A stretch of DNA of 64,000 nucleotides from Candidatus Bathyarchaeota archaeon (GCA_963775465.1 CAVZIW010000003.1:192001-256000), one strand, 5' to 3'; positions 1-24,662 are shown, numbered from the stretch's first letter. The notes: generated by a model from the letters alone, not told the origin. A program made the numbers and translations.

Positions 1-987
1 TTTGGTTAATTTTATTGCTCGGGCGTTTTGTTCAACGGTTGTGCCTTTGCGCATTAGGTTAAGTATTTGTTGGTTTCCTGATTCAACTCCGAAATGAATC
101 AGTTGGCAGCATGTATCGTGCAGTTTTGTTAAGAGTTCCTTGGAGACTTTATCAACTCGAGTTCGGCAATCCCAGGGTAAATCAAGCTTGCGTTTCTGCA
201 TTTCATCGCAAATTGCGACTGCTCTGGGTACGTCGAAGGTGAAGGTGTCATCATAAAATGCAAAGGCGCCTGCTCCAAACTCGTCACGTAGCCATTCTAA
301 CTCATCGACTACATTGGCTGGACTGCGAGCACGGAAGCCTCTTCCACACATTTTGTACGCTGCACAGAACGCGCAGCTAAAAGGGCAACCTCTGCTGGTG
401 ATGATTGGGAGATAAGTTTTGTTTAAAATTTTGTATCTGCCTACGTCAAAATGATTGTGAGCTGGGCGGGGAAGAGCATCAATGTCTTGTATGAAGGGGC
501 GGTCGGGGTTGCGGAAGACTTGACCGTTCTTTTGGAATGTTATACCTGCAACTTGGCTGAGTTTTTTTTGGTTTCCCTCGCTAATTAGTTGAGCAAGCTC
601 TAGCATGGTCATTTCGCCTTCGCCGCGGGCAACTATATCAACATACTGACTTTCCGTAAAAGTCTCTTGATCTCTGACTGTTACATGCGGTCCGCCAATC
701 ATGGTGACTGCGTTTGGCAGGGAAGATTTTGCGGCTTTCAAAATATCCAAGGCTGGATTGTAAGTTAATGTGGCGGATGTTACGCCGATTATGTCGGGGT
801 TGAGGCTTCGAAATTTGTCTTCCAAATCCTTTTGGGTTGGGTGAGTAGTTTGGCAATCAACCACGTCTACGGTGTATCCATTCTTTTCCAGAACCGCTGT
901 TAAGTAACTAATACCTAAAGGCAGAAAGATAGCTTGCGGTGCCTCAATTGGGTAAGGTGGATTTACGAGTGCTACGTGAGCTTTCAC
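1..987 (-). CDS. Cobalamin-binding (class B) radical SAM protein, 3' end runs off the window
   Basis: Not in the ORF track because it has no stop in the window. Manual translation from GTG 987 gives MKAHVALVNPPYP...LGISYLTAVLEKNGY...IGGPHVT...RGEGE (B12-binding domain) and SRGCPFSCAFC (CxxxCxxC). Confidence 0.9.
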   Translation of the reverse strand, partial: MKAHVALVNPPYPIEAPQAIFLPLGISYLTAVLEKNGYTVDVVDCQTTHPTQKDLEDKFRSLNPDIIGVTSATLTYNPALDILKAAKSSLPNAVTMIGGPHVTVRDQETFTESQYVDIVARGEGEMTMLELAQLISEGNQKKLSQVAGITFQKNGQVFRNPDRPFIQDIDALPRPAHNHFDVGRYKILNKTYLPIITSRGCPFSCAFCAAYKMCGRGFRARSPANVVDELEWLRDEFGAGAFAFYDDTFTFDVPRAVAICDEMQKRKLDLPWDCRTRVDKVSKELLTKLHDTCCQLIHFGVESGNQQILNLMRKGTTVEQNARAIKLTK

Positions 988-1143
988 TTGGTTCCCCAAC
1001 TTAGTGTAGTCAAAAACGGTTGTTGATGCTATTATGTGTTTTGTAAAATCTGCAATCCCTCAGAATCTGCCAATAACGCAAGGTTTTTTATGCAAAGTCT
1101 TCAACTAACCCCCTAGTATCATTGTTACCTGGAGAAAATTGGT

Positions 1144-2679
1144 TTGTCAGCTGATTTGGTAATCTTTAACGCAAACGTAAGAACCCTGAACTCAAGCCAG
1201 CCCGAAGCTCAAGCAATAGCTATTATTGAAAACAAAATCGTGAAGGTTGGGTCAATCCAGCAGGTTCAACAATTAATCGGCGAAAAGACCAAGATCATCA
1301 ACCTTGACGGTAAAACGGTGATACCTGGGTTAATTGATACGCACATCCACGTGGCAGATTTTGGGAGATACCTAATGTGGCTCGAGTTAAAGAATGCCAA
1401 ATCTATCGTTGAACTCCAAAATATGCTAAAAGAAAAAGGTCAGAATATGCAAAGGGGGCAGTGGATTATTGGGCAAGGCTGGAATGAAAATCGTCTAAAA
1501 CGTTTGCCAACAACTGCAGACCTGGACGAGGCAGTGCCAGACAACCCAGTTATCCTCTATCGCGAAGCCGCAATGATTTGTGTCGCAAACAGCAAAGCGC
1601 AAGAACTTGCAGGTATAACGGAGCAGATTTCTGTCCCTTCAGGAGGATCAATCGATAAAGACTCAAAAACGGGGAAACCAACCGGAATTTTCCGCGACAC
1701 TGCAACCAACTTAATCTGGCAAGCTGTGCCTGAACCCAGTCAAGAGGAACTTTTGGATAATACAGCGTTGGCTTGCCAAAAAATCTCTCAAGCAGGGTTA
1801 ACCAGTGTGCATTGGCTTGTTTTGTCGGAAAATGAGTTGCCGATTATTCAAAAATTGTATGAACAGAAACGTTTGCCTTTCAGAGTTAATGTTATTGTTC
1901 CATTCGAACTTTTGAGCAAAATTGGGAATTTCGAACCTTTTGACCAACTGGAGTTACGTATTAGTGGCGTTACTGTAAATGTTGATGGGTATTTGGATTC
2001 TAAAGAAGCTGCATTGTTTGAACCTTACAGTGACGACCAGCAAAACAGCGGCAAAACGCTTTGTTCTGAGGATATGTTGTCGGATTCTGTTGGCAAAATT
2101 GTGGCGGTGGGGTTGCAGCCGTGTATTGTTGCTATGGGTGATAGAGCAGTTGATTTGGCTTTAAGGGTGATTGAGAAGTCACCTAAAGGCGCGCGTTTTC
2201 GTATTGAGCAGGCTGCAGTTTTAAACGAAGGCTTGGTTCAGCGTCTTAAGCAGCAACAGGTCGTTGTGTCAGTTCAATCTAAAGTTATCTCAACTGAATT
2301 TTCAGTTTGGTCTGCGGTTGAGCGTCTCGGTTTGAAACGTGCAAAATGGTTGCACCCACTTAAAACTCTGATAATTGCCGGTGTTAAAGTTGTTGGAGGT
2401 TCTGATTGCCCTATGGAACCCCTAAATCCATTGCTGGGGATTCAAGAAGTTGTTCTTCGGCAGGTCTTTCCTGAGCAGCGTTTAAGCGTTGAGGAGGCTC
2501 TCAAGATGTACACTTTGGATGCTGCTTTCAGTTCAGGTGAAGAAGCAATTAAGGGTTCCATCGAAGAAGGTAAACTTGCAGACTTGACAGTTCTCTCCAA
2601 TGACATAACTGAAGTTGCGCTTGATAAAATCAAGGATACAAAGGTTGAGCATGTTGTGGTTAATGGGATACTTCTATAG
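1144..2679 (+). CDS. Amidohydrolase_3 (YtcJ-like) family protein with altered second metal site
   Basis: PGLIDTHIH, GGSDCP and GSIEEGKLADLTVL motifs; 511 aa. Confidence 0.85.
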   Translation: MSADLVIFNANVRTLNSSQPEAQAIAIIENKIVKVGSIQQVQQLIGEKTKIINLDGKTVIPGLIDTHIHVADFGRYLMWLELKNAKSIVELQNMLKEKGQNMQRGQWIIGQGWNENRLKRLPTTADLDEAVPDNPVILYREAAMICVANSKAQELAGITEQISVPSGGSIDKDSKTGKPTGIFRDTATNLIWQAVPEPSQEELLDNTALACQKISQAGLTSVHWLVLSENELPIIQKLYEQKRLPFRVNVIVPFELLSKIGNFEPFDQLELRISGVTVNVDGYLDSKEAALFEPYSDDQQNSGKTLCSEDMLSDSVGKIVAVGLQPCIVAMGDRAVDLALRVIEKSPKGARFRIEQAAVLNEGLVQRLKQQQVVVSVQSKVISTEFSVWSAVERLGLKRAKWLHPLKTLIIAGVKVVGGSDCPMEPLNPLLGIQEVVLRQVFPEQRLSVEEALKMYTLDAAFSSGEEAIKGSIEEGKLADLTVLSNDITEVALDKIKDTKVEHVVVNGILL

Positions 2680-2683
2680 CTTT

Positions 2684-4139
2684 TTACTTCTTTTTTAGCA
2701 GCATCCTGGTCGTCTTCACTGGATGTTTTATTGCTCTTAAGACCTTGCTTCGAGTGAAGGTTGGATTTACCATGTTTGCTTTCATGCAAAGCTCCTGTAA
2801 ATCCTGCGCTGAAAAATCTGGGGTTTCAACCTGTGGTTCTGTAGCTGCTAACGCATAATCACAGAAGCCTTCTTTAAGAAAACCCTTTTGTTTGGCTTGC
2901 TCGTAGAATTCTGTGCCGTAAAGGGGCATAGCGATACTGAAGATAAAGGTGTCTGCACCTAAACTTCTTAGTTTGTAGGCGAAGTTAATTGTTTCTTCGA
3001 TGTCTTGTTTGGTTTCTCCGATAAGTCCGATGACAAAGAAGCAGCCGACTTTAATGCCCACTTTTTTGCTTAAGATAACAGCCTTTTCAACGGCTTTGAG
3101 ATCCTGATTTTTTTTGACAACTTCATTTACGATTCGTTGTACGCCTGATTCGGGGGCGATTCGAATTTTTTTACATCCTGCTTTTTTCATTTTACGGAGT
3201 AGTTCTTCGTCGAGGCTGTCTGCTCGGATTCCGTTTGGCGTAAACCACTCAACTTTAATTTTGCGTTCCACAATTAGATCGCAGATTTTCATCATGCGTT
3301 GTTTATCCAACGTCATGTTGTCGTCTGAAAAATCAATTTGTTTGATCCCAAAATTATTGACTACTTGCTCTACTTCTTCCACAACATTTTTTGCGCTTCG
3401 TGGACGCCACTTCTTGCCCCAGACTACGCAGCTTGAACAAAACACGCAATTGTAGGGGCACCCTCTGCCTAGTGATGATTATTGTATAGGGCTTGGTGAT
3501 TTCTCCTCGCAGGGGATTTTGTTTAACGGCTTTGGCGTAAACTTCCATGGGGAGTAAGTGCCTTGCTGGAAACGGCAGTGTGTCTAAGTCATCAATTACT
3601 GGACGTTTGCCTGTCAATATTGACTGGTTTTTTTCTCTGAAACCTAAACCATCGATTTCTTTAAAATCGCTTTTTTGCTCAAGAGTGCTCATCAATTCCG
3701 AGATGGTTTTTTCAGGCTCACCCACAACCACAAAATCTACATCAACGTTTTGTAGGCAATCAAGAGGCTTCGAAGATGGATGTAAACCGAACAATACAAC
3801 AATAATGTTTTTGTTGACTTTTTTAGTAGTGGCTGCGACTTCAAAGGCTGTTTTTGACCAGCCTGAAAAAGGAATCTCTATTACGACGGCATCGGGGTTC
3901 CAGTTGGCGATGCGTTTTGCAATGGTTTCTGCTGACAGCCCGACTCGGTATTTGGTTTCGTCTAGTTCTAGGAGGTTTTCCCAACCTTCAGTTGGGGCAT
4001 CGATGATGTTTACTGAGTGTTTTTGTTCTAAGACCGCGGCAACGGAAGCTATTACTATGGGTGGAAAAACGTTAGGTTTTCCCCATGCTTTGGGTTGAAT
4101 TCTTGGTGGGTTGATGAGGCAAACTCGCATTGATTGCAC
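2684..4139 (-). pseudogene. Cobalamin-binding radical SAM protein split by a +1 frameshift (pseudogene or sequencing error)
   Basis: ORF 3354-4139 holds the B12-binding domain and ORF 2684-3445 the radical SAM core. Removing one base at 3468-3469 restores IITSRGCPYNCVFC. Confidence 0.85.
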
Positions 4140-4384: not shown

Positions 4385-5410
4385 CTAAATGGGCAAAAAC
4401 CAAATCCGCATAACTGCGATTAAAGCGATACATAATAATCCCCATAAAACAATCGTAATGTCCCTAATTCGTAGGGCACTTAAAATTTTCTCTCCGGTCA
4501 ATTGTTCTTGTTTGTCACCAAGGATGTATTGGTCAGGTTTTTCTAACTGAACTCTGAGTGCGCCGGCAATAGCAGCCATTGGCCAGCCATGGTTTCTGCT
4601 AGGAGTTTTTCGATGGTCTCGTTTAGCGATTTTCCAGGCATTTTTAGCATCCATGTGCAGAAGTCCTGCCGCCATAATCATAAGCAACGCCGTCAGCCTT
4701 GTGGGAATATAGTTTACGATTGTGTCAAGAGTTGCGCTGAACCATCCTGTGTTTATGTGTTCTTTGGTTTTGAAGCCAACCATGCCGTCGAGTGTGTTTA
4801 TGGCGCGGAAAGCAATTGCACCTGTAATGCCAAATAAAGCAAACGACATCATTGGTGATAGTTTAAAATCGATAAGGTTCTCCGACATTGATTCGATTAC
4901 TGCACTGCTTATCTGGGAACCGTTTAGGGTTCGGCTGTCACGTCTGGAGAAGTGGCTATATTTTTTTGCCTCTTCTAAGTCGTTTGCTTGAATTGCTTTA
5001 GCTGCGGCTTTTGCCCAATCTGTTTCAAGTTTGATGCATAGTGTCATTTTTAGGAGGATTACGGCGATGAAACTGTATACGAGGATGTTGAGGTAAAAGG
5101 GTAAGTATGTATAGATTGCCCATAATGCAAAGAAAGTTGGTAACGCAAAGGTTGCGATCGCTGTTAAACCCAGCAGAACGCCCAAGAATTTTTCAGTGTT
5201 TTGGTCTTTGTTCTTGAAGTAAGGCTCAATTTTTTGTATGAAATTGCCCATAAGCACAGTTGGATGCAGCTTGAAGGAAAGTTTATCAGGATAATTGGGC
5301 GAAGGGTCTCCAAAGATATATGCTAGCAAGACCGCAAAAACTAGAATTACAGTTGCGACTATACTGTTTAGAGCGTTTTGCGTCAGCAAAGAATCGATGA
5401 CGAGCCACAT
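4385..5410 (-). CDS. cbiB: Adenosylcobinamide-phosphate synthase CbiB/CobD family membrane protein
   Basis: GDP...HPT, IESMSEN, FRAINTLDGMVG, NYIPTRL and GWPMAAIAGAL motifs; hydrophobic segments. Confidence 0.9.
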   Translation of the reverse strand: MWLVIDSLLTQNALNSIVATVILVFAVLLAYIFGDPSPNYPDKLSFKLHPTVLMGNFIQKIEPYFKNKDQNTEKFLGVLLGLTAIATFALPTFFALWAIYTYLPFYLNILVYSFIAVILLKMTLCIKLETDWAKAAAKAIQANDLEEAKKYSHFSRRDSRTLNGSQISSAVIESMSENLIDFKLSPMMSFALFGITGAIAFRAINTLDGMVGFKTKEHINTGWFSATLDTIVNYIPTRLTALLMIMAAGLLHMDAKNAWKIAKRDHRKTPSRNHGWPMAAIAGALRVQLEKPDQYILGDKQEQLTGEKILSALRIRDITIVLWGLLCIALIAVMRIWFLPI

Positions 5411-5518
5411 TGTTTCGATACTTTCGGTAATGTGTTTATATCAATTACGGTTAGAAGCTGGAGCTCAATTCTAAGAGTTGCGTTTGCTTTTTTAGTATAA
5501 ACATCTCTATAGAATGCA

Positions 5519-5959
5519 GTGCTTACCTTGGAGCCAGAAGAAGAACTAAACGCTACGACCTTTCAAACTTACCTCTACCTGGTCAAGGTTGGTAAACCCG
5601 TCGGACCTAGAGATTTGATGCGTGGTGCCAACCTCAGCAGTCCCAGCGTTGCTTATCGAAACCTCCAAAAACTGATGGATTTAGGTTTAGTTGTCAAAGA
5701 TAACTATGGTGACTATGTCATAAAAGAGAAATTGAGCATGAAAGGTTACGTTTGGTTTGGAAAAAATCTTATTCCCACCTTTGCAATTTTTGGATTCATT
5801 TTTGTTGGTTTTCTAATCGCAGAGATTGCAGTTTTGATTCCCCATTTGATTGTGAGTGCACCTGTTGAGGAGTCTTTTTGGTTCCTAACTGCGATGACTA
5901 TTGCTTGTGCACTTATTTTCTTAATAGAAGGTTTGCGATTTAGAAAAAAAGCTCGTTGA
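5519..5959 (+). CDS. Winged helix-turn-helix protein with two C-terminal transmembrane helices
   Basis: VGPRDLMRGANLSSPSVAYRNLQKLMDLGLV resembles a wHTH and is followed by two hydrophobic stretches. Confidence 0.75.
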   Translation: MLTLEPEEELNATTFQTYLYLVKVGKPVGPRDLMRGANLSSPSVAYRNLQKLMDLGLVVKDNYGDYVIKEKLSMKGYVWFGKNLIPTFAIFGFIFVGFLIAEIAVLIPHLIVSAPVEESFWFLTAMTIACALIFLIEGLRFRKKAR

Positions 5960-5962
5960 AGG

Positions 5963-7357
5963 CTATTTCCTTCTCAGCTTAAGTTTAATGTTTGCAATGA
6001 AGTGCATGCCAACAATAATGGCAGTTGAAAGCTTGAATCGTCTACTTTTCTCAAGGAAGTATGCTCTCCGTAGATAGTAATGGTGGAATGCACCTTCACG
6101 TAGCTTACCCAGCTCCTTCATGCTTAGATGTGGGGTCTCAAAAATTGGTCTGGTAGTGTCGTAGAGATCAAAGTCGGTTACTCGGAGCCAACCATTCTCT
6201 TTAACTATGTCATACATAGGTGTGCCTGGGAACGGTGTGGCCACATTGTAGAAGCCGACAGCGTCGGGAGCAACTTTCTCAACGAATTTAATGGTGCTCC
6301 AAGCGCTTTCTTTAGTTTCACCTGGAAAGCCAAGAATAACGTTTGGCACAGGTTTCATACCGACTTCTCTTACCCAGCTAAGTACCTTCTCAGTCAAATC
6401 CGGGGTAATACCTTTTTTCATAGCATCTAAAACTTGCTGCGTTCCAGATTCAAGACCGCACCAGAACGAGACACACCCCGCTTCTTTCATTTTCGCTAGC
6501 AACTCTTTGGTAACCATGTCAACGCGGCTTCCGCAATTCCATTCAATCTTTAACCCGCGCTTGAGAATTTCATTGCATAATACTTCGGTTCTTTCTTGGT
6601 CCACAGTGAAAGCATCATCACAGAACGTAAATTTTCTGATACCATACGTTTTATACAAAAACTCTAGCTCGTCAACGACGTTATGTGGGCTTCGCATTCG
6701 ATATTTTCGCCCATGCATCCGCACTGTTGTACAGAACTCACACCAATAAACGCACCCTCTGCTGGCTGCTAAGTAGAGTATGTCTTCAAGTTCACGGAAT
6801 CGTTCCATTGGCCAAAGGTGTCTTGCAGGAAATGGCAAACTATCTAAGTCCTCAATGTAGGGGCGGTCTGGATTCCGCAAGATTTTGCCGTTTGCTCGAA
6901 CTGTTGTACCTATAACATTTAGGTAACTTTTACCGGCTTCAATTCGTTGAACTAGCTCTAAAAGAGTATTTTCTCCTTCTCTCCTCACGACCACGTCAAG
7001 TTCAGGGCATTCTTCAAGTGCATGATCATCCCAAAAAGTAACATGTGGACCACCCGCAACTATTACAGCGTTAGGTAAAGCTTCTTTTGCGATTTTTATA
7101 AGCTTTAAACCGGTTTGATAAGTCAACGTCGACGAAGTGACCCCAACAATGTCTGGTTTGCGCTTGCTTATTTCAGTGCGAAAATCCTCAAATGACAGTT
7201 TCAGTATCTGGCAGTCGATAACGTCAACTTGATAACCGTTTTTCTCTAAGACCGCTGCCAAGTATCCTAAACCAAGAAGTGCAAATGGCATATGCATGGC
7301 GGCGCCAATTGGCGCAGCAGGGTTAACTAGAGTTACGTGAGGTTTCATTGAGTTCAC
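5963..7357 (-). CDS. Cobalamin-binding (class B) radical SAM protein
   Basis: LGLGYLAAVL, GGPHVT and REGE motifs plus SRGCVYWCEFC; clear paralog of the gene at 1-987. Confidence 0.92.
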   Translation of the reverse strand: MNSMKPHVTLVNPAAPIGAAMHMPFALLGLGYLAAVLEKNGYQVDVIDCQILKLSFEDFRTEISKRKPDIVGVTSSTLTYQTGLKLIKIAKEALPNAVIVAGGPHVTFWDDHALEECPELDVVVRREGENTLLELVQRIEAGKSYLNVIGTTVRANGKILRNPDRPYIEDLDSLPFPARHLWPMERFRELEDILYLAASRGCVYWCEFCTTVRMHGRKYRMRSPHNVVDELEFLYKTYGIRKFTFCDDAFTVDQERTEVLCNEILKRGLKIEWNCGSRVDMVTKELLAKMKEAGCVSFWCGLESGTQQVLDAMKKGITPDLTEKVLSWVREVGMKPVPNVILGFPGETKESAWSTIKFVEKVAPDAVGFYNVATPFPGTPMYDIVKENGWLRVTDFDLYDTTRPIFETPHLSMKELGKLREGAFHHYYLRRAYFLEKSRRFKLSTAIIVGMHFIANIKLKLRRK

Positions 7358-7565: not shown

Positions 7566-8378
7566 TTGCTCCAAGACCAAACACTAAAAGAACAAATCCA
7601 CCAAGCCAACATCGAAGTCCATCGGTCTGAAGCAAAATATTATGAGGCATTACATCCAGAAGTTTACAGCAAAAAAGAACAAAAAAGAATATGGGAAACC
7701 CTTGGTGCCATAGACAAACAAATCACAGGCACCAAGAAAAATGCCTTGGATATTGGGGCAGGAACAGGTAACCTAACTAGCAAGCTTCTGTCGCTAAGGT
7801 ATAAGGTAACAGCAACTGACATTTCACCTGAAATGTGCGAGATTCTACGGAAGAAATATCGCGCTTACATACCTAAACATTTGACGATAGTTAATTCCCC
7901 TATTGAAGAATTAGCTTTTGACGAGGATAAATTCGATTTAATAACTTCCTATTCTGTTCTTCATCATCTTCCTAATTATATTTCGGCTTTAACAACTCTA
8001 GTAGGTTACCTGAAAGACGGAGGAATAATTTACATTGACCATGAAGCTTCCCCCTCGTATTGGAAAGGGGAACCCAGCAGTCTTGCCAGCTTTGTAAAAG
8101 CCATCTATTTCCACTCTAACCCAACAATCAACGCTCTGTACTTCCAAATTATCGGCTTGAAAGTACCCGTAATCGATTACACATTATCAGATTACTGGCA
8201 CAAGAAAGAACACGCTCTAAACCACCAAGAAATTGAACAGGTATTCAAAGAAGCACGGTTCACCTCCTACAAAAGAATGGACCATTACCTCCATGCAACA
8301 TGGCTTCCCAACCCACTTTCAATTGTTTATAGACTTTTATGCAGTCCTGAAATGAGTTACTGGATAGCAAAGAAATAA
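7566..8378 (+). CDS. Class I SAM-dependent methyltransferase
   Basis: LDIGAGTG, DISPEM and FDLITSYSVLHHL motifs. Confidence 0.88.
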   Translation: MLQDQTLKEQIHQANIEVHRSEAKYYEALHPEVYSKKEQKRIWETLGAIDKQITGTKKNALDIGAGTGNLTSKLLSLRYKVTATDISPEMCEILRKKYRAYIPKHLTIVNSPIEELAFDEDKFDLITSYSVLHHLPNYISALTTLVGYLKDGGIIYIDHEASPSYWKGEPSSLASFVKAIYFHSNPTINALYFQIIGLKVPVIDYTLSDYWHKKEHALNHQEIEQVFKEARFTSYKRMDHYLHATWLPNPLSIVYRLLCSPEMSYWIAKK

Positions 8379-13612: not shown

Positions 13613-13616
13613 ACAA

Positions 13617-16761: not shown

Positions 16762-18178
16762 TTTTTGTTTTCACTCCCTGGAGGCAACCGGGGTCTCCAT
16801 TCAGCATGTCACCGTTATGGTATGCAGCTGATCGAGCTCGGCATCCGCCGCAGATAAACTTATAGTCGCATTTGCCACATGACCCTTTCAAATTAGCTCT
16901 GTTGCGGAACTTCTTGAAAAGGGGTGCGTTTAGCCAGATATCGTGAAACTTTTGGGATTTTAGGTTGCCGACTTTTACAGGCAGAAAAACACATGGATGC
17001 ATGTCTCCTTGTGGTGAGATCGAACAATATAGTCTGCCTGCTCCGCATCCGCCGATGAAATCACCAAGCGGCACAGCTTTCTTGGTAACTTTGACGGTTT
17101 GCATGTGTGCCATTGACATCGTGACTTCACCCGTGCCTCCTAAACCTTGACACTGCAAAGCCACTCGAGCCAGCTGCGGTGCAGTCGCAAGGATTGTTGT
17201 TTTACATCCGGCTGACATGCGGTTAAGTAAATAACGGAGAACTTCCTCTCGTTCCTTGGGTGACAAGTCTTGGTCAACATGTGCTTTGCCGCGTCCTGTC
17301 GGAATAAAATTAAAATAAGTAAATCGTTCAGCTTTGATGTTCTCTGCTAAATCGATAATAGCAGGTAACTCTGCCATGTTGTTTTTGCCAACAGTTGTCG
17401 CGATGCATACACACAAGTCGGCGTCCACACAATTTTTAAGTCCAGCTACCGCCTTTTCAAAGGTTCCGGGGACACCTCGGAAATCATCGTGTGTCTTGGC
17501 GGATGCACCATCGATGCTTACATCGATGTAGTTAACTTTTGCTGCCTTGATTTTTTGTACGTTTTCTTTGGTGAGAAGGGTGCCGTTTGAAGCGAGTGAC
17601 ACGTAGAGGCCACGATCGGAAGCATATCGTGCAACTTGGAAGAAGTCTTTGCGGGTTAAGGGTTCGCCGCCGCTAAACGCCAATGCCGTTACACCTGCAT
17701 CTGCAAGTTGGTCAACAACGGCCAACGCCTGTTCAGTCGTTAATTCCTGCTCTTGGATATCGCCGCTGTTGGAGTAACAGTGTTTGCAGACTAAGTTGCA
17801 TTTATGAGTGAAATCCCAAACAACCAGAAACGGCGCGGAAAGCGACATAGGTCTTTTAATGCCAAAATAAGCAAATGACCGAACTAAATTCAAAACGGCA
17901 GTCTGCGCATAGCGGTCAGCTAAAAGCTTCTTAACCTTTGCCCGCTTAAACCCGAGACTTCTGCGCAGAAACTCCACCCAAAAACTAATAACCTGAGAGT
18001 AGAAACCACTGCATTGCCCGCATTGTTTGTCTTTTTTGCTAGCGTAATCGTCAAGTGCTGCCTCCAGCACCGTTCTGCCGCATTTGGGGCATTTTTTTAG
18101 CGAGAGCTGGAGCATCTTTTTGGTCATAGGCAGAGAAATGACTGCATTCCAAAATATATCGTAGCTAAGGATGTTCAT
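16754..18178 (-). CDS. Radical SAM/SPASM protein resembling the GMGT synthase (Gms) family
   Basis: FGIKRPMSLSAPFLVVWDFTHKCNLVCKHC core, FIGGCGAGRLY...PCVFLP and CGKCDYKFICGGC SPASM domain, and an N-terminal extension with CPKC/CGQC. ATG 18178 preferred over 18268. Confidence 0.75.
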   Translation of the reverse strand: MNILSYDIFWNAVISLPMTKKMLQLSLKKCPKCGRTVLEAALDDYASKKDKQCGQCSGFYSQVISFWVEFLRRSLGFKRAKVKKLLADRYAQTAVLNLVRSFAYFGIKRPMSLSAPFLVVWDFTHKCNLVCKHCYSNSGDIQEQELTTEQALAVVDQLADAGVTALAFSGGEPLTRKDFFQVARYASDRGLYVSLASNGTLLTKENVQKIKAAKVNYIDVSIDGASAKTHDDFRGVPGTFEKAVAGLKNCVDADLCVCIATTVGKNNMAELPAIIDLAENIKAERFTYFNFIPTGRGKAHVDQDLSPKEREEVLRYLLNRMSAGCKTTILATAPQLARVALQCQGLGGTGEVTMSMAHMQTVKVTKKAVPLGDFIGGCGAGRLYCSISPQGDMHPCVFLPVKVGNLKSQKFHDIWLNAPLFKKFRNRANLKGSCGKCDYKFICGGCRARSAAYHNGDMLNGDPGCLQGVKTKNA

Positions 18179-18349: not shown

Positions 18350-19729
18350 TTGAAAAGAAGTGCTCTGCTGATTGCAACTATAGGATTGATTGCAGTTATA
18401 GTGGTATCCACGTTGATAATTTACGAACACGGCGTGCTCACCCCAGAAGGCTCCAATGTTCTTTGGCAACGCAACCTTGAGAATTTTGCCACTGCTTTAG
18501 CCACTGATAATGGAAAGGTTTTTACGATGGACATTTCTGGGAACGTCAATTGTTATGACAATCAAACTGGCAAATCAATCTGGAACGGTAGCAGTGTGGG
18601 TGGCTATTTCGCTGCAGAACTCACAGTGGCGGAAGGCAGGGTTTACGGCGGTTACAGGCATGCTTCCGTTGGATGTTTAGATGAGGCAACAGGGCAGTTT
18701 CAATGGAACCTTATTTATACCGCTGGCGTTAATCAAGCACCTGATAATCTTATCGTTGAAGATGGACAGTTGTTTGTGATTGCAGAAGGCCCCGGAGCAG
18801 GAGTTACTGCCCTCAACGCTTCAAATGGGCAGATTCTATGGCAAACACCCTACCGATTTGACATATTTGGAAATATAACTGACTCCAAGACTTGGTGGGT
18901 AAGCGGTTATCCGTTGGGAGGTGACCCCTTTGACGGCAGCAACGTTTATGCGTTAGGCGGCAACGAATCTGAGGTAAATATTTTCAAGCTGGATACGAAC
19001 AACGGCAACATACTTTGGCACAGCAACCTAACATCATTCGTGGGGATTCCAAGTGTTATAACAATATATCAAGGGCAACTAATCGTAGAGAGCGGCAACC
19101 AAATCCTAAGTCTCAACGCCACGTCAGGCGACAGCCTCTGGAACATCGACGTTGGCGCCCGAATCCATTCCGCCGCCCCCCATCAAGGTTTACTTCTTTT
19201 CGGAGCCTCAGACGGCAACTTTTATGGGCTCGATTTACAGAGCGGCACTATATCTGCCACAACCAAAGTTGATAGTCAAAACTTCTTCTCCCTCGTTAAC
19301 AGCGACAATGCCCTTACAGTTTTTCCCATACAGGTTGACCCTCAAAATCAACGGATATATTGGAGCTTTGGCATCACAGAACAAAACCAATTCAAAGCTA
19401 CTATAGTCAGCCTCGACTTAGCCATACTAAAAGTTGAATGGACAAAACAAATCCAAGATAGCACCCTCTCCTTCGACAGCCAAACGGCTTCAGCTATCAA
19501 CAAGGACGCTCTGTTTTTGACCGAGAATAATGCTCTTTGGGTTTTTAACGCCGCAAACGGTAACTTGGCTGAGAAGCCAACGCTTCGACCACTACGTGTT
19601 AGCGCCAGTGGAGGCGGACGAAGAGATGTTTGTGGCATCAGACCTCCAACTAACCGCATACAATTAATCTTAAGCGCATTAAGGCTATTAATAGAAGGTA
19701 CACTGCTCTGGAGTAAGTGTTCATTTTAG
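18350..19729 (+). CDS. Membrane-anchored/secreted PQQ-like (BamB-type) beta-propeller protein; C-terminus probably frameshifted (alternative stop 19667)
   Basis: N-terminal hydrophobic helix and repeated 'ALNAxxGxxLW' blades. An alternative frame after about 19568 gives RSQRFDHYVLAPVEADEEMFVASDLQLTAYN*. Confidence 0.8.
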   Translation: MKRSALLIATIGLIAVIVVSTLIIYEHGVLTPEGSNVLWQRNLENFATALATDNGKVFTMDISGNVNCYDNQTGKSIWNGSSVGGYFAAELTVAEGRVYGGYRHASVGCLDEATGQFQWNLIYTAGVNQAPDNLIVEDGQLFVIAEGPGAGVTALNASNGQILWQTPYRFDIFGNITDSKTWWVSGYPLGGDPFDGSNVYALGGNESEVNIFKLDTNNGNILWHSNLTSFVGIPSVITIYQGQLIVESGNQILSLNATSGDSLWNIDVGARIHSAAPHQGLLLFGASDGNFYGLDLQSGTISATTKVDSQNFFSLVNSDNALTVFPIQVDPQNQRIYWSFGITEQNQFKATIVSLDLAILKVEWTKQIQDSTLSFDSQTASAINKDALFLTENNALWVFNAANGNLAEKPTLRPLRVSASGGGRRDVCGIRPPTNRIQLILSALRLLIEGTLLWSKCSF

Positions 19730-19760
19730 AGCGAAGTGCTTAACTCTGAGAAGTTTTAAA

Positions 19761-20393
19761 TTAATCCCTAGAGAGCCTCTTTGTTCTTGTCATTATATTT
19801 TGGGCGATTTCAAGGTCTTTGGTTGTGTTGATGTTCAGGAGAAACTCTGTTTCTTCCGAGATTATTGCGCTTGTTTCAATTTTGCCTTCGCTTTGAATTT
19901 TAGTCCCGTTAATGATGTTGATTCCCGATACTGCATACCAAATTCCATTGTATTCATCGATTGAAGAAATCGATAGACCTGCGTCTTCTCTTGCTTTAAT
20001 TGGAACAAAAACCGCCAAAAAATCTTTTTTGCAGAATTCAAACTCGCTAACGATTTTGTCAAGACCTTTCCCTGTAATAGCTGGCACATCTGCTGGCAAC
20101 GTGAGCACTGGACCAGTCCAGCCCAGATTGAAAACCGCTTGCTTCAAATCATCATGGTAACCTTTGGCTTTGGTACGCAGGATTTTCCAGCCTTTGTTGC
20201 GACAGTGTTGCTCAGTTTCAGATGTATTACCGCTCGTGACAATATAGAATTCTGAAACATTTTTCGCGCTGGCAACTGCTTCGGCAACCCAGTCAATCAG
20301 AGGTTTGCCCAAAAACTGTAACATTGGTTTTTCAGACGACAAGCTCATCCTTTTTCCCATTCCGCCAGCCATTATCAAACAAGGAACCTTCAT
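19761..20393 (-). CDS. cobY: CobY-like NTP transferase (adenosylcobinamide-phosphate guanylyltransferase), copy 1
   Basis: MAGGMGKRM...EKP, ADVP, GINII and NINTTKDL motifs; overlaps cobS. Confidence 0.85.
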   Translation of the reverse strand: MKVPCLIMAGGMGKRMSLSSEKPMLQFLGKPLIDWVAEAVASAKNVSEFYIVTSGNTSETEQHCRNKGWKILRTKAKGYHDDLKQAVFNLGWTGPVLTLPADVPAITGKGLDKIVSEFEFCKKDFLAVFVPIKAREDAGLSISSIDEYNGIWYAVSGINIINGTKIQSEGKIETSAIISEETEFLLNINTTKDLEIAQNIMTRTKRLSRD

Positions 20394-21223
20394 GCGATCA
20401 CCATGAGTGCCAAGGCAAGTAAAACTAACGTTATAGCTCGTGCAACCTCGTTTGTTGCTCCAATCATATCACCTGAAACTCCGCCAAAAACATTGTATGA
20501 GACTTTTCGCATTCCAAATGCAACGGGAATACTGACTAAAACCATTCCAACACTCGCTAATCCCAAAACTAAGTTGCCGAAAAAGCCGAAGCAGGTGAAC
20601 GCTATCAATACGGCAATTGCATAAGCGGCGACGTTGAGTTTCTTTTTGGCTTTAGCAAGAAAAATTGAGCCTAAACCTTTATGTGATGGTTTGCCTGCCC
20701 AAATAATAGTTACCATTGAAAGCTTGGCCGAAACCTCAGCTGCAATAACCGCTCCGAATGCATACCCTGGATTCACTAAAAACAAGCCAGCAAACGCTAA
20801 AAACTCCACAGCTAACGCTAAAACTGCGCCTGCGTAAGTAACGGTCCAAGCATGAGCCTTCATTTTTCGGTCATGGACGTTTCGCAAACCAATAGCGTTG
20901 CCTAAATCGATTAAACCGTCAAAGTGTTGAAGCCCAGTTAAAACAGAGAGAAAAGCAATCGTCATGGCTGCAGGAATTAGGTTCCCTAGTACTGCTGTGG
21001 GCAAAGCAACAATATTTCCTGCTAACCCGAGAATAAACGAAACTACTATGTTTGAACCAATAAAATAAAATGCTCCAAGTAAACCAATAAAGCCGCCGAT
21101 TAACGGAAAAAGCCAAACATTCTCTGCTGTTGTCAAGATGAAGTCTTCTTTTCCTCCAACCGGTATGATGGTTAGGAAAGACAGCAAATCCCTAAAAGTT
21201 TTTATAGTTTTCACAGGCGACAT
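20390..21223 (-). CDS. cobS: CobS-like membrane protein (cobamide synthase), divergent copy 1
   Basis: LSFLTIIP, FPLIG, TGLQHFDGLID and GGVSGDMIGATNE motifs; lacks the DG and MxD..GxxG elements seen in copy 2. Confidence 0.82.
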   Translation of the reverse strand: MSPVKTIKTFRDLLSFLTIIPVGGKEDFILTTAENVWLFPLIGGFIGLLGAFYFIGSNIVVSFILGLAGNIVALPTAVLGNLIPAAMTIAFLSVLTGLQHFDGLIDLGNAIGLRNVHDRKMKAHAWTVTYAGAVLALAVEFLAFAGLFLVNPGYAFGAVIAAEVSAKLSMVTIIWAGKPSHKGLGSIFLAKAKKKLNVAAYAIAVLIAFTCFGFFGNLVLGLASVGMVLVSIPVAFGMRKVSYNVFGGVSGDMIGATNEVARAITLVLLALALMVIA

Positions 21224-21237
21224 ATAGCTTACAACTA

Positions 21238-21255
21238 CCTATATGAAAATATAGG
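21238..21255. promoter_or_regulatory. Perfect 7-bp inverted repeat CCTATAT-GAAA-ATATAGG in the very short divergent intergenic region; candidate bidirectional TATA box or operator
   Basis: The repeat is directly visible. Each TATA-like arm lies about 25-30 nt upstream of one of the two divergent start codons (21223 and 21272). Confidence 0.5.
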
Positions 21256-21271
21256 CTTTGTCGTGACTTGG

Positions 21272-22207
21272 ATGGCTGACCTAAAAGGAAAAAAAGTTAT
21301 GGTTACTGGCGGAGCAGGTTTTGTAGGTTATCACCTGTGTAATAAACTCCAAAATTTGACCGATGACTTAACGATTTATGATAATTTATCGAGCGGCAAG
21401 ATTGAGAATGTTAATGATGTTTCGAAAGCAAAGTTCGTGAAGGGTGACATACTTGACCTAACAGGTCTCTTTGACTTACCCAAACAGGATTTAATTTACC
21501 ATTTAGCTGCTCAGGTTGTTGTGCCGTATTCGATGGAGAATCCTATGATTGATTTTGAAACAAACGCCAAAGGCACGCTTAGCGTATTGGAGAAAGCCCG
21601 CAAAGATGATGCCAAACTGGTGTTTGCTTCTAGCGCAGCTGTCTATGGCAACCCAACCCAAATGCCAACCACGGAAGAGTACGGTTTTCATCCGGTTTCA
21701 TGTTATGGCTTATCCAAAGTTGTTGGGGAAGAATATTGCCAAATGTATAGTGAGCAATATGGTTTAGATGTTGTCATCACTCGGTTTGCTAACGTTTACG
21801 GATTGCGTTGCCATGGTGTTATCCATGATTTTCTTGACAAACTTGCTAGGAACCCCAATAAACTTGAAATCATCGGTACTGGTTTGCAGTCACGCGACCT
21901 TGTGCATATTTCTGATGTCGTTGACCTATTGATTACTGTTGGCTCGCTTCAATCAGTAAATGGAGAAACCTATAATGTGGGCTTGGGAAAAACAACCAAG
22001 ATCATAGACCTCGCAAAAATGATGCTAAAAATTCTTGGGCTTCATGACAGGACCCTGATCACAACTACCGGTGTATCCTGGCACGGCGATATTCACACTA
22101 TTTGGTTTGATAACTCAAAAGCAAAAAAAGAACTGGGCTGGAACCCAAAGGTCACCTTGGAAGATGCTATTAAAGAAGTCATCGCTGACAGGAAAATAAA
22201 GATATGA
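21272..22207 (+). CDS. NAD-dependent NDP-sugar epimerase/dehydratase (extended SDR)
   Basis: TGGAGFVG, SSAAVYG, YGLSK and RFANVYG motifs. Confidence 0.92.
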   Translation: MADLKGKKVMVTGGAGFVGYHLCNKLQNLTDDLTIYDNLSSGKIENVNDVSKAKFVKGDILDLTGLFDLPKQDLIYHLAAQVVVPYSMENPMIDFETNAKGTLSVLEKARKDDAKLVFASSAAVYGNPTQMPTTEEYGFHPVSCYGLSKVVGEEYCQMYSEQYGLDVVITRFANVYGLRCHGVIHDFLDKLARNPNKLEIIGTGLQSRDLVHISDVVDLLITVGSLQSVNGETYNVGLGKTTKIIDLAKMMLKILGLHDRTLITTTGVSWHGDIHTIWFDNSKAKKELGWNPKVTLEDAIKEVIADRKIKI

Positions 22208-23118
22208 GTACTGTCAAGCCAGCAAGAGGCCTGATAGCGCTTCTGCGACTTCCTTACTGGCTAATGACTGGTGGATTAGCAGTTTTAACGGCGTTTGCCA
22301 TCTTAAAAGGCGACTTTTCGAGCATACAAACCAATATAGGCAATATGGCTTTCGGTTTGGTTGCATTATTAACTTTTTTTTCCATGGCATTTATAGCTTC
22401 TGCAGGTTTTGCCATAAATGACTATTTTGATCGCGAAAGCGATGCAGTCATTAAACCTAGACGTCCTATTCCTTCAGGTGCACTCTCACTCAAACAGGTT
22501 GTATTTGTTTCCGGGGCACTTTTTGCGTTAGGATTGATTCTTTCATCATTCATAAATTGGCTTAGCTTTACTATCATTGCTATTGATTCACTTTTGCTGT
22601 TGCTTTACTCGTACATGGTCAAGAAGAAGTCAGGTTTTGCAGCAAACCTATTAATGGGGATTTTAACGGGTACCGCGTTTATTTATGGGCAAGCTACCAT
22701 TTCAGATACTATAAACTTAACTTCCTTTACACTTTATCCAATTGCGTTTGGCACCATTGGCGGCAACGTACTTCGAGACATTCTTAGCCTGGAGGGTGAC
22801 TCTAAAGTTGGATATCCCACGTTGCCACAGAAAATCGGGACAATTAGTGCAGCTAAAGTCGGAGCGATATTTTTTCTCTTAACAGGATTGTTAGCGCCCC
22901 TGCCAGCTATACCCTTCTTTGCGGGTCACTTCACAGTTTATTATTTGCCGCTCATTCTACTTTGGAGTATACTTTTAATCTATGCTTCTATACGTCTAAT
23001 GACTTCAGCTTCAACTGTGCAGAACATACGCAAATACGAACGTATCGTAACCATGTCGATGATATTGCTTCCTCTTGCGTTGATCATTGAAGCAGTCCTT
23101 GGGTGGCTATTAGCATGA
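22204..23118 (+). CDS. UbiA-family prenyltransferase, DGGGP synthase-like
   Basis: INDYFDRESDAVIKPRRPIPSG, degenerate second motif RDILSLEGD..GYPTLP, multiple TM helices. Confidence 0.85.
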   Translation: MSTVKPARGLIALLRLPYWLMTGGLAVLTAFAILKGDFSSIQTNIGNMAFGLVALLTFFSMAFIASAGFAINDYFDRESDAVIKPRRPIPSGALSLKQVVFVSGALFALGLILSSFINWLSFTIIAIDSLLLLLYSYMVKKKSGFAANLLMGILTGTAFIYGQATISDTINLTSFTLYPIAFGTIGGNVLRDILSLEGDSKVGYPTLPQKIGTISAAKVGAIFFLLTGLLAPLPAIPFFAGHFTVYYLPLILLWSILLIYASIRLMTSASTVQNIRKYERIVTMSMILLPLALIIEAVLGWLLA

Positions 23119-24662
23119 GTGAAACAAAAAGCATATGTCCTGAATGCCAAAAAAAAATCGATGCCCAATTAAGTCAAGCTAATGGCAAAATACAAATTAC
23201 TAAGCGATGTCCAGAACATGGAGACTTTAAAGCAACCCACTGGCAAAGTAAGCCCATATTTGAACATATGCAAAAATACGACCAATTCCAATATCTGGGC
23301 GACCTAAATGCACCCAAAAACCCTGATGGCTGCCCCTATAAGTGCGAAACCTGCACTCAACATGCTTCAGGCACGGTTATAGGCGTAATTGACGTAACCA
23401 AACGCTGCAACTTCAAATGTGCAGTTTGCTTCTCTACTTTTCCCCAACAAGACTCAGATTATGAACCAACAAGAGAAGCACTCGAAAATATGTTGATATT
23501 CGCAAGCGAAGCAAATCCTAAACCTCCAGCCATTCTCTTCTCAGGCGGTGAACCTCTTGAACGAGAAGACATGCCTGAAATAATCGCTACTGCTCATAAA
23601 CTGAAGTTCATGACTATTTTAGCAACTAACGGAACCCATTTAGTTGACACTCCTGGCTTAGCCAAGAAACTAAAAGACAGCGGTTTAAACATCGTTTATC
23701 TGTCATTTGATAGTTTTCATGAAGAATTCAACAAAAAAGTGCGGGGACTTGAGCTTGTTGACATGAAACTTAAGGCAATCGAAGTTTGCCGTAAATATGA
23801 TATGGAAATAATTCTTGTAAATACGCTCATGAAGAGCCTCAATGACAAAGAAGTTGGTGATATGATACGGTTCGCCGCCAAAAACACCGATATAATTAGA
23901 GGTTTAATCTTCCAACCCATCGCGTTTACAGGGAGAGCAACCGAAAATCCTTTCCGTGAAAACTTCCGCGAATGGAGCTTTGCCGAAGGTGTTGAAAAAC
24001 AAACTGATGGTGAAATAAAAGCTACTGATTTATATCCGATGTCGGTTATGACTTCGCCAATTAAAATTATGCGTAAATTCATGCAAAAACCTTGGCCGTT
24101 GTTCTCGTGTAGCCCACAGTGCGGTATAGTAAACTGGGTTTATGTTTCTAAAAACGGCAAAATGTTCCCAATAAACCGCTTCGTGAATTTTGACCGCTTC
24201 TTTAACAGCATTCGCAAGACCGCGGAGGCAGCTGAATCCAAAGGCAAAATGTCCTTGCTTTCGTCACTATTCATGGCATCTATGCTATCGATGGACATGT
24301 TCTTAGTTACAAAGGAAGTAGGAATGCCAACACTTGTTAAATCAATCATGCGCATGCATCTCTCACCATCGTACCAGTCGTTGGGAAAAATTCGACGCAG
24401 AATATTCCTGTTAGGCTGCATGGCCTTTATGGATTCTTTCAACTTTGACGTTAACCGCGTCCGCCGATGTGTAGTTCACTACATAACCCCTGACCTCAAA
24501 ATAATACCGTTCTGCGCCTACAACAATGTGCATCGAGTGGCTATAGAAAAAGAATACGCACAACGCCAAAGCAAAACCCAATCAAACTTACAATATACTG
24601 TTTCTAACACAAATTCTAATGAGATTACGCCAAACGCTAAACTGAAAAATACTCGCAAGTAG
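23115..24662 (+). CDS. tes: Tetraether lipid synthase (Tes / GDGT-MAS)-like radical SAM protein
   Basis: N-terminal CPEC...CPEHG, auxiliary GCPYKCETCTQH, radical SAM CNFKCAVC, and C-terminal MAFMDSFNFDVNRVRRCVVHY...IIPFCAYN. ATGA overlap with the UbiA gene. Confidence 0.85.
   Translation: MSETKSICPECQKKIDAQLSQANGKIQITKRCPEHGDFKATHWQSKPIFEHMQKYDQFQYLGDLNAPKNPDGCPYKCETCTQHASGTVIGVIDVTKRCNFKCAVCFSTFPQQDSDYEPTREALENMLIFASEANPKPPAILFSGGEPLEREDMPEIIATAHKLKFMTILATNGTHLVDTPGLAKKLKDSGLNIVYLSFDSFHEEFNKKVRGLELVDMKLKAIEVCRKYDMEIILVNTLMKSLNDKEVGDMIRFAAKNTDIIRGLIFQPIAFTGRATENPFRENFREWSFAEGVEKQTDGEIKATDLYPMSVMTSPIKIMRKFMQKPWPLFSCSPQCGIVNWVYVSKNGKMFPINRFVNFDRFFNSIRKTAEAAESKGKMSLLSSLFMASMLSMDMFLVTKEVGMPTLVKSIMRMHLSPSYQSLGKIRRRIFLLGCMAFMDSFNFDVNRVRRCVVHYITPDLKIIPFCAYNNVHRVAIEKEYAQRQSKTQSNLQYTVSNTNSNEITPNAKLKNTRK

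Follow-up and report, generated by a model that had tools for sequence, protein, structure and literature searches.

The tetraether-synthase block and its conservation

The DNA analysed here (the window) is a stretch of 64,000 nucleotides from a soil or wetland Bathyarchaeia genome (Candidatus Bathyarchaeota archaeon, GCA_963775465.1), corresponding to positions 192001-256000 of contig C3 (CAVZIW010000003.1) in an assembly of 2.42 Mb, 15 contigs and 92% completeness. Its first 24,662 positions carry a gene cluster with a Tes-like tetraether synthase at the right end, accompanied by a UbiA-type prenyltransferase, a sugar-nucleotide epimerase, a radical S-adenosylmethionine (SAM)/SPASM protein resembling Gms, four B12-binding radical SAM proteins, three glycosyltransferases and paralogs of four cobamide-assembly enzymes. 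A reading made from the sequence alone had described this set as a lipid-related locus resembling a biosynthetic gene cluster. A listing of open reading frames (ORFs) together with Pfam and NCBIfam scans found every gene it named where it had placed it, and the general description is supported. Its list had missed an Amidohydro_3 gene, a PQQ propeller gene, an aldo/keto-reductase fragment and two small membrane proteins (5519-5959 and 12294-12827), and its B12-binding gene at 2684-4139 turned out to be frameshifted.

The Tes-like gene (23103-24662, plus strand) encodes a diverged tetraether-synthase paralog that we call Tes2. It scores 463.8 bits on the NCBIfam model NF045702, above the cut-off of 450, and shares with the tetraether synthase of M. 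jannaschii (GDGT-MAS, PDB 7TOL/7TOM) its full length (residues 7-486 aligned with 7TOL, E = 1.8e-112), an N-terminal zinc ribbon (Pfam Zn_ribbon_HMPTM) and all the cysteines that are invariant in the genome's other type of Tes, Tes1 (10 of 10). Judged by these sequence features, Tes2 is a member of the Tes family, as had been claimed. The genome holds one other match above the same cut-off, the Tes1 copy on contig C13, which reaches 672.3 bits and is 37% identical to Tes2. Apart from its lower score, Tes2 differs from known Tes in its phylogenetic position: in a tree of 27 sequences (14 Tes2, 13 Tes1) it forms a single clade, whose long stem measures 1.56 changes per site (support 100 in the Shimodaira-Hasegawa-like approximate likelihood ratio test) and within which the sequences of two families, here f1 and f7, are reciprocally separate, and the Tes1 of the same genomes lie on the other side of the branch. 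With a separate clade at support 100, the tree gave no orthology of Tes2 to the housekeeping Tes of its lineage.

The reading frame of Tes2 overlaps that of UbiA2 (22204-23118, plus strand), to which it is translationally coupled. UbiA2 is a prenyltransferase paralog whose best matches are models of the digeranylgeranylglyceryl phosphate synthase (DGGGPS) type, at scores below the equivalog cut-offs (NF009523, 160.4 against 269; NF009521, 151.6 against 296); chlorophyll synthase models match more weakly. The UbiA copy on contig C15, 29% identical to UbiA2, scores higher (224.9 and 178.3) and likewise remains below the cut-offs. The start of UbiA2 is in turn overlapped by the stop of an NAD-dependent sugar-nucleotide epimerase/dehydratase gene (21263-22207, plus strand; Pfam Epimerase and GDP_Man_Dehyd; 164 bits on the GalE model, below its cut-off). 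Because the stronger Tes and UbiA copies sit elsewhere (C13 and C15), and geranylgeranylglyceryl phosphate synthase, two CDP-alcohol transferases and the CDP-archaeol synthase CarS are scattered in the genome, the locus encodes paralogs and not core lipid synthesis; on this point the sequence-only reading was not borne out.

Extra Tes copies are known from methanogens, in which 22 of 322 genomes carry a second one, according to Zeng et al. 2022 (PMC8941075); the M. acetivorans protein MA_1114, when expressed, gave no glycerol dialkyl glycerol tetraether (GDGT) and only traces of macrocyclic archaeol, and therefore Tes paralogs can have other roles. Like MA_1114, Tes2 is an extra Tes paralog beside another Tes, and it is set apart by its coupling to a UbiA paralog and its linkage to two cobamide-enzyme paralogs. 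The genes of these, cobS2 (20390-21223) and cobY2 (19761-20393), lie next to the epimerase gene on the minus strand.

All 15 loci compared, which represent nine genera in two families of one order, have the block cobY2-cobS2-(epimerase)-UbiA2-Tes2, though one of them is cut short, without CobY2. It is contiguous, epimerase included, in all seven genomes examined over up to 60 kb. In another eight loci, belonging to five additional genera of f1 and to three genomes of f7, CobS2, UbiA2 and Tes2 occur together without exception, CobY2 in seven (one locus is cut) and the epimerase in six. The f7 genomes G097, G066 and G224 have a HemN-like radical SAM gene inserted between cobS2 and Tes2; its product is 47-51% identical to the HemN-like protein encoded at 184.1 kb of contig C3. 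Another f7 genome, G040 (41-61% identity), holds nearly the whole gene set of the window within 26 kb in a different order, comprising four B12 radical SAM genes, the methyltransferase, Gms, one family 4 and two family 2 glycosyltransferases (GT4, GT2), a 177-residue protein, cobD2, cobY2, cobS2, Tes2, UbiA2 and the epimerase, with CbiB2 3.4 kb beyond.

The distribution of Tes2 is narrow. Among 301 genomes sampled from the order, 118 have matches at Tes2 level (94 of 147 in f1, 23 of 60 in f7, 0 of 93 in ten other families), and in a sample of 401 genomes from the phylum nothing outside f1 and f7 rose above the ordinary Tes1 level (40-43% identity). CobS of any kind is present in 136 of the 301 genomes of the order, nearly all from f1 and f7. 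All five f7 genomes examined have two Pfam CobS matches, one of 85-96 bits beside Tes2 and one of 128-139 bits elsewhere; CbiB likewise gives two matches in each of them, and in four the weaker match is on the Tes2 contig at a distance of 26-34 kb.

We also compared 80 named loci with 82-97% Tes2 identity. Within 10 kb of Tes2, UbiA2 is present in 79 of them, the epimerase in 78, CobS2 in 74, CobY2 in 61 and Gms in 56; restricted to the 63 loci whose upstream flank measures 9 kb or more, these numbers become 62, 61, 60, 53 and 52, respectively. Nearly all of the 80 records bear the label Candidatus Bathyarchaeota or Bathyarchaeia, among them several Ca. Bathycorpusculum or Bathy6 isolates, and the remaining handful carry the labels Nitrososphaerota, Thermoproteota, Crenarchaeota, 'uncultured archaeon' and, once, Ca. 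Acidoferrum. The Tes2 of G040 has relatives, 80-82% identical, that carry the labels Ca. Bathyarchaeum sp. and MCG-1 archaeon SG8-32-1. Bathyarchaeum is given in PMC10477458 as genus BIN-L-1 of family BA1, order B26-1, 'former subgroup-8', and from the labels on these relatives f7 may correspond to the Ca. Bathyarchaeum lineage. Five further genomes of the window's genus all have orthologs of Gms, of B12c (one of the B12 radical SAM proteins, below) and of CbiB2, mostly on the Tes2 contig.

The check that the sequence-only reading had proposed, extension to the left and comparison of gene order, thus came out in its favour: the gene set continues leftwards beyond the window, and synteny is kept in two families. 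The sharp end that it had placed at the housekeeping genes nth and xpd holds in this genome but is no general boundary, as nth follows Tes2 in only one of the 80 named loci, and CarS lies 4.3 kb further on. Because the clustering is conserved in related genomes, the co-location is more than chance. That it nevertheless reflects no functional unit, and only gene order inherited in a slowly rearranging region, is highly improbable. The modules do separate in some genomes, as in G001, where 36 kb separate Tes2 from Gms and 45-70 kb separate it from the B12 genes, and in G008 and G015, where the B12 genes are on other contigs. Adjacency nevertheless outlasts inversions, insertions and 40-60% sequence divergence between the two families, and the flanking housekeeping genes are not kept, nth being found in 1/80 loci and xpd in 10/80.

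Radical SAM enzymes and glycosyltransferases

The Gms-type radical SAM/SPASM gene (16754-18178, minus strand) probably encodes a protein of 474 residues, its ORF being open to 18268. It has the Pfam domains Radical_SAM and SPASM, and scores 308.5 bits on the AhbD model TIGR04545 (residues 148-496 of the open ORF), below the cut-off of 500. By its published definition, Gms is a homolog of AhbD that is extended at the N-terminus by about 100 residues (COG4001, six helices; PMC11214058, PMC11186832). In the 474-residue form, whose relatives measure 474-475 residues, the AhbD-like core begins near residue 118, leaving an extension of about 117 residues, and the total length exceeds the published minimum for Gms of at least 400. 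The extension carries a conserved CxxC...CxxC pattern, for which Pfam gives only weak zinc-ribbon matches, and is common to about 50 of the best 150 representatives (30-47% identity, aligned from within the first 40 residues). In a FastTree phylogeny of 109 sequences, those bearing the extension require 14 changes, against a mean of 33.5 after shuffling; they do not form one clade, and the nearest neighbours of our sequence all bear the extension. The protein appears to have the published Gms architecture, AhbD homolog plus extension. Searches for close relatives, made with this protein and with the Tes2 of G040, returned near relatives only, without functional names. Another AhbD-like radical SAM/SPASM core, with 36% identity to the Gms-like protein, forms part of a much longer protein; it is encoded at 35662-36729 of contig C3 within an open frame of 727 residues, which has relatives of about 700-736 residues in G001, G003, G008 and G015.

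The stop of the Gms-like gene is overlapped by the start of a DUF362 gene (15799-16761, minus strand; Pfam 167.8 bits), which stands beside Gms in 53 of the 80 named loci; none was found in the f7 loci examined. Next to it lie a GT4 gene (14603-15802; Pfam Glycos_transf_1 and Glyco_transf_4), a GT2 gene whose product has a hydrophobic C-terminal part (13617-14606; Pfam, hydropathy) and a second GT2 gene of the polyprenyl-phosphate hexose transferase or AglJ-like type (12896-13612; Pfam Glycos_transf_2; TIGR04182 152.6, below cut-off), all on the plus strand. The minus-strand gene at 12294-12827 encodes the 177-residue protein, with three hydrophobic segments by hydropathy and no Pfam family over the cut-off, which always adjoins CobD2 and the glycosyltransferase genes, G040 included.

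Four genes of the window encode proteins with B12-binding and radical SAM domains (Pfam). B12a (1-999, minus strand) is cut by the window start; the full protein has about 490 residues, its gene reaching to position 191530 of contig C3, and orthologs in G012 and G014 are 66-70% identical. B12b (2684-4139, minus strand) is read as two ORFs, one for the B12-binding half and one for the Radical_SAM half, since in this assembly a frameshift of one base interrupts the gene immediately ahead of the CxxxCxxC motif. The base at 3468 is absent from the contigs of all four public runs, and therefore the frame of B12b is whole in near-identical strains; intact orthologs are also present in G012, G014 and G040. 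B12c (5963-7357, minus strand) has Pfam matches and NCBIfam matches below equivalog cut-offs, and forms its own subfamily in our tree, with a 61% identical ortholog in G040; a search of the ESM Atlas with it returned only generic 'B12-binding radical SAM' clusters. B12d (8613-9989, plus strand; Pfam) belongs to a deep separate subfamily (stem 1.41, support 100) that includes a G040 ortholog. The tree of these proteins has at least four deep groups, and B12b, B12c and B12d have f7 orthologs; therefore they are not recent tandem copies. The best NCBIfam matches are BchE for B12a, B12c and B12d, and HpnJ and a P-methyltransferase model for the two halves of B12b. Three further B12 radical SAM genes lie to the left of the window, at 164.6, 166.4 and 185.5 kb of contig C3, so that 37.4 kb (C3 164.6-202.0 kb) hold seven of the 12 in the genome, or of 13 if one weak match is counted. 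Between B12c and B12d lies a class I SAM-dependent methyltransferase gene (7566-8378, plus strand; Pfam Methyltransf_11/12/25) with orthologs of 48-70% identity in G012, G014 and G040. Co-location of B12 radical SAM genes with gms was observed in the window and in G012, G014, G010 and G040.

Comparable arrangements have been published. In T. guaymasensis and several other lineages gms is clustered with gmm and grs (Garcia et al. 2024, PMC11214058), so that, as here, an extended AhbD-like radical SAM gene stands beside genes for B12-binding radical SAM enzymes. For Bathyarchaeota, 188 Gms and 307 Gmm sequences are reported, with several Gmm2 copies in many cases (PMC11214058; preprint 10.1101/2023.10.20.563219), some of them on one scaffold (PMC11214058). 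Gms-gmm-grs clusters and multi-copy Gmm2 in Bathyarchaeota are thus already known, and the statement of the sequence-only reading that such genes are usually scattered does not agree with these sources. Nor does the available text of PMC13459092, which assigns Grs enzymes to a B12-binding megacluster, describe calditol synthase as a B12-binding radical SAM enzyme, as that reading had done. What distinguishes the present locus from those described in the available text of PMC11214058 are its seven B12 radical SAM genes from at least four deep subfamilies, the three glycosyltransferases, the second Tes/UbiA pair and the four cobamide paralogs. In the ted-hgs-grs locus of Ca. Bathyarchaeota B1_G15 (Garcia et al. 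2025, preprint 10.1101/2025.10.20.683597) a B12 radical SAM gene is likewise co-located with lipid genes; the Gmm-like enzyme Ted, which acts on GDGT tails, is a tetraether desaturase, and therefore Gmm-like enzymes can do more than methylate. In contrast to that locus, we recognised no AttH-like hydratase here, and the B12 proteins have 458-490 residues, whereas Ted homologs have at least 500. The block of Tes2, UbiA2, CobS2 and CobY2 was not found described in the literature searched, which did not extend to supplements that may show this neighbourhood (Fig. S7, Fig. S16 and Dataset S2 of PMC11214058; Fig. S8 of PMC11697101).

The family matches of these radical SAM enzymes raise the alternative that the island modifies a tetrapyrrole or corrinoid, with AhbD-, BchE- and HemN-like enzymes acting on the macrocycle, UbiA2 prenylating it in the manner of chlorophyll synthase or heme O synthase, and the cob paralogs finishing the product. 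Its basis lies in the top NCBIfam matches, AhbD/NirJ for the SPASM enzyme and BchE for B12a, B12c and B12d, in the HemN-like radical SAM gene of the left flank and its f7 counterpart directly between cobS2 and Tes2, in the weaker matches of UbiA2 to chlorophyll synthase, and in a cbiZ gene within the island. We nevertheless consider it very unlikely: all those matches fall far below the family cut-offs, the AhbD-like protein bears the Gms-marking extension, Tes2 belongs to the Tes family proper and has no known role in tetrapyrrole metabolism, the best matches of UbiA2 are DGGGPS-type models, and three glycosyltransferases do not fit such a pathway.

The many B12 radical SAM genes could also belong to catabolism. 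Metagenome-assembled genomes (MAGs) of Bathy-6 have 7-20 COG1032 B12 radical SAM genes each, for which a role in lignin metabolism has been suggested (PMC11697101), and by this account the B12 enzymes, PQQ propellers and methyltransferases would serve the breakdown of lignin-derived or recalcitrant substrates, the lipid genes being mere neighbours. The PQQ-like beta-propeller gene of the window (18350-19729, plus strand; Pfam PQQ_2, hydrophobic N-terminus), another in the left flank, and MtrH, CbiZ and SAM synthetase (MetK) in the wider island would suit such a role. We recognised no family of catabolic enzymes in the cluster, however, and the position of the PQQ gene is kept in only 7/80 named loci, whereas three of the B12 subfamilies stay beside Gms, the glycosyltransferase genes and Tes2 in the second family; moreover, characterised relatives of the combination of gms and B12 radical SAM genes act on tetraethers (PMC11214058). 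We regard the catabolic explanation as unlikely.

Duplicated cobamide genes and the proposed role of the cluster

The cofactor genes that the sequence-only reading had named are indeed present, but as second copies beside a canonical set. CbiB2 (4385-5410, minus strand), an adenosylcobinamide-phosphate synthase paralog, exceeds its equivalog cut-offs (NF002281, 280.9 against 273; TIGR00380, 235.6 against 165.9); it is 40% identical to CbiB1 of contig C8, which scores 321.2 on NF002281. CobD2 (11173-12291, minus strand), a threonine-phosphate decarboxylase paralog, narrowly misses its cut-off (TIGR01140, 269.7 against 290.55) and matches PDB 1LC5 with E = 1.2e-41. The canonical cobD1, side by side with cbiB1 on contig C8 (125797-126928), is split into two overlapping ORFs by a frameshift or an assembly error, and the scores of its halves sum to 283. 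CobY2, a guanylyltransferase paralog, falls short of its cut-offs (TIGR00454, 119.9 against 174.7; NF045495, 99.1 against 250), as does the higher-scoring CobY1 (155.6 and 126.5); its only PDB matches are to CobY of M. jannaschii, and it keeps the nucleotide-binding glycine-rich motif. CobS2, a diverged membrane phosphotransferase paralog, is recognised by Pfam (PF02654, 90.7 against 23.2) and scores 101.5 on TIGR00317 (cut-off 110), on which CobS1 reaches 151. CobS2 sequences lie on one side of a branch with support 100 (12 sequences against nine), with an inner topology that parallels the Tes2 tree, and keep 24 of the 48 CobS1-invariant columns, with four fixed differences. The canonical cobY1 (62457-63095) and cobS1 (63059-63841), both on the minus strand, lie near the right end of the window (62457-63841), with cobT, whose product scores 400 against a cut-off of 240, beyond it; this cobY1-cobS1-cobT operon is kept in genomes of f1 and of a further family, f11. 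The canonical set outscores that of the cluster on every model, for CobS, CobY, CbiB and CobD alike. The cluster thus has the same four Pfam families as archaeal cobamide salvage and loop assembly (CbiZ, CbiB, CobD, CobY, CobS, CobT), but its copies are lower-scoring, dispersed among lipid genes and without a CobT partner.

De novo corrin synthesis was rejected for the window's genome, in which only diphthine synthase matches TP_methylase; corrin-ring synthesis was found neither there nor in G003, each of which has a single such match. The genomes G014, G250 and G040, which carry the same cluster, have six TP_methylase matches each, five of them in one locus.

We propose, with a probability of roughly 0.58, that the locus is part of a conserved, lineage-restricted supercluster for the tailoring of tetraether lipids, whose second cobamide set probably feeds the B12 enzymes. 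Its carriers are two families of one Bathyarchaeia order, and the window's genus counts Ca. Bathycorpusculum (Bathy-6) among its named relatives. The supercluster can be divided into a module A (cobY2-cobS2-(epimerase)-UbiA2-Tes2), a module B (cobD2, the 177-residue protein, the two GT2 and the GT4 genes, (DUF362) and Gms) and a module C (the B12 radical SAM genes, the methyltransferase, cbiB2 and the amidohydrolase). As we envisage it, GDGT would be made by the housekeeping pathway, whose genes were observed elsewhere in the genome. The Gms-type enzyme would cross-link the two biphytanyl chains, and the B12 radical SAM proteins, of at least four old subfamilies, would functionalise C-H bonds as Gmm, Grs and Ted do, by methylation, ring closure or desaturation. 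The two GT2 and the GT4 enzymes together with the epimerase would add sugar head groups, and the pair of Tes2 and UbiA2 may make or couple a variant core lipid. CobD2, CbiB2, CobY2 and CobS2, for their part, would most likely assemble or remodel the cobamide needed by the B12 radical SAM enzymes. All four loop-assembly steps are duplicated, and therefore the pathway appears to have been retained as a whole, which favours a second dedicated cobamide pathway.

The second set could instead have been recruited to lipid synthesis. CobY2 and CobS2, perhaps with CobD2 and CbiB2, would then lead to a head group or backbone of unconventional type. In this scheme an amino-alcohol phosphate would be the product of CobD2, activation of a phosphate monoester with GMP the task of CobY2, and transfer of the phospho-group to a lipid or sugar hydroxyl that of the membrane enzyme CobS2, in parallel to the route of CarS and the CDP-alcohol transferases and alongside prenylation by UbiA2 and tail coupling by Tes2. 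Several observations speak for this, and some of them also weigh against our proposal. The pair cobY2-cobS2 adjoins UbiA2-Tes2, enzymes with no need of cobamide, in 15 of 15 loci, despite inversion, epimerase loss and the HemN-like insertion, and stays with them even in G001, where it does not follow the distant B12 genes. The canonical cobY1-cobS1-cobT and cobD1-cbiB1 keep their usual operons, whereas the second set is interleaved with lipid and glycosyltransferase genes and not arranged in cofactor operons, cobD2 going with the glycosyltransferase genes and cbiB2 with the B12 genes, and no CobT paralog was found in the cluster. CobS2 scores below the CobS equivalog cut-off, with fixed H-to-Q and D-to-N changes at two CobS1-invariant columns, and both paralogs are retained across the two families. 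Because the second set is dispersed and its CobY/CobS pair follows UbiA2-Tes2 and not the B12 genes, we keep a phosphodiester-linked head group or backbone as an option, if a doubtful one. Our proposal is also weakened on the side of the radical SAM enzymes, since all NCBIfam matches of the B12 proteins are below cut-offs with BchE or HpnJ on top, membership of the Gms family rests on architecture, and the COG1032 genes of Bathy-6 have been linked to lignin as mentioned above.

On the other hand, the joint duplication of four loop-assembly enzymes fits a second cobamide pathway better than the recruitment of single enzymes. CobY2 has only CobY among its PDB relatives and keeps the glycine-rich motif, CbiB2 passes the CbiB equivalog cut-off, and CarS and two CDP-alcohol transferases are already present for ordinary head groups. 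To our knowledge no lipid is known with a head group of the kind that CobY2 and CobS2 would make, which also counts against recruitment, and we judge this explanation improbable.

A more specific form of the same idea, for which we see an equally low chance, is that CobY2 and CobS2, with CobD2 and perhaps CbiB2, together with UbiA2/Tes2 amount to a second assembly line that depends on GDP and yields an unconventional tetraether, the backbone or chain of which would be methylated by one or more B12 radical SAM enzymes of the cluster. The product could be of the kind of butanetriol or pentanetriol dialkyl glycerol tetraethers (BDGT/PDGT), or of methylated glycerol monoalkyl glycerol tetraethers (Me-GMGT). 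Two papers (PMC12694404, PMC13003381) cite BDGTs as a biomarker for the genus Baizosediminiarchaeum of subgroup-8, and the literature consulted names no gene for methylation of the BDGT backbone. If such an assembly line exists, the cluster would be the genetic basis of the 'unconventional' lipids of subgroup-8, and the same lipids would be predicted in Bathy-6.

For the tetraether-tailoring proposal, the interest lies in the prominence of the organisms and of their lipids. Bathyarchaeia are among the most abundant archaea of sediments and soils, and GMGTs in peat, methylated tetraethers and BDGTs are used or have been proposed as biomarkers. In the literature searched we found no assignment of genes for most lipid modifications of Bathyarchaeia (GMGT, methylated tetraethers, BDGT). 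The cluster narrows the candidates to one Gms-type enzyme, four B12 radical SAM subfamilies, one Tes/UbiA pair and three glycosyltransferases, a set that is kept both in Bathy-6 and in the second family, whose relatives are labelled Ca. Bathyarchaeum, and that can be tested in the hosts used for Gms, Gmm and Ted. In addition, a whole cofactor-finishing pathway is duplicated amid its likely client enzymes, which would mean either a dedicated cobamide supply or a chemistry recruited for other substrates.

The wider island and neighbouring genes

A metallo-amidohydrolase of the Amidohydro_3 family (1144-2679, plus strand; Pfam 304 bits), present in single copy in the genome, is kept beside B12a and B12b in G012 and G014 (57-63% identity). 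Behind position 2676, at the end of its gene, the contigs of all four public runs have three extra letters relative to the window. The gene at 5519-5959 (plus strand) encodes a small protein of 146 residues with two hydrophobic segments (hydropathy) and a weak TrmB-like winged helix (Pfam TrmB, E = 0.0012, below cut-off), features by which it is possibly a membrane-bound regulator. Three paralogs of this family are encoded in the genome, at 179.2 kb of C3, 19.2 kb of C15 and 159.5 kb of C4; radical SAM genes occur no more than about 2 kb from those of C3 and C4, and one is about 3 kb from that of C15. An aldo/keto-reductase fragment (10350-10940, plus strand), comprising only the C-terminal part (Pfam Aldo_ket_red profile positions 122-274 of 291), is kept in G012 and G014.

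To the left, the island reaches at least 28 kb beyond the window start. The nearer part of this flank contains genes for a methyltransferase, an 844-residue PQQ protein, a 363-residue radical SAM/SPASM protein, a B12 radical SAM protein, a HemN-like radical SAM protein and an RnfD-FrhB fusion, and the farther part genes for a 367-residue radical SAM protein, a bacterial-type SAM synthetase, CbiZ, two B12 radical SAM proteins and MtrH. The SAM synthetase (C3 174701-175969), inside this radical-SAM-rich region, has all three S-AdoMet_synt domains and may provide a local SAM supply. The fusion protein (C3 179884-182055), of 723 residues, joins an RnfD/NqrB-like membrane domain to FrhB/FdhB domains; relatives occur within the clusters of G014 (55% identity) and G040 (47%), and it may be an electron donor to radical SAM enzymes.

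To the right, Tes2 is followed by nth, xpd, a RadA-like gene and then CarS (CDP-archaeol synthase; 28975-29511, plus strand; NF003114 182.4 against 148), a housekeeping neighbour outside the conserved block; in G001 and G010 CarS stands next to the block on its cobY2 side. The remainder of the window holds housekeeping genes, among them those for topoisomerase, STT3, MoeA, PolB and thermosome, and no tRNA genes were found in it. At 258.4-260.4 kb of contig C3, near the canonical cobY1-cobS1-cobT, there is a GT4 and GT2 pair about 30% identical to the GT4 and one GT2 (GT2a) of the cluster, and a similar pair directly follows Tes2 in G001, G010, G232 and G078.

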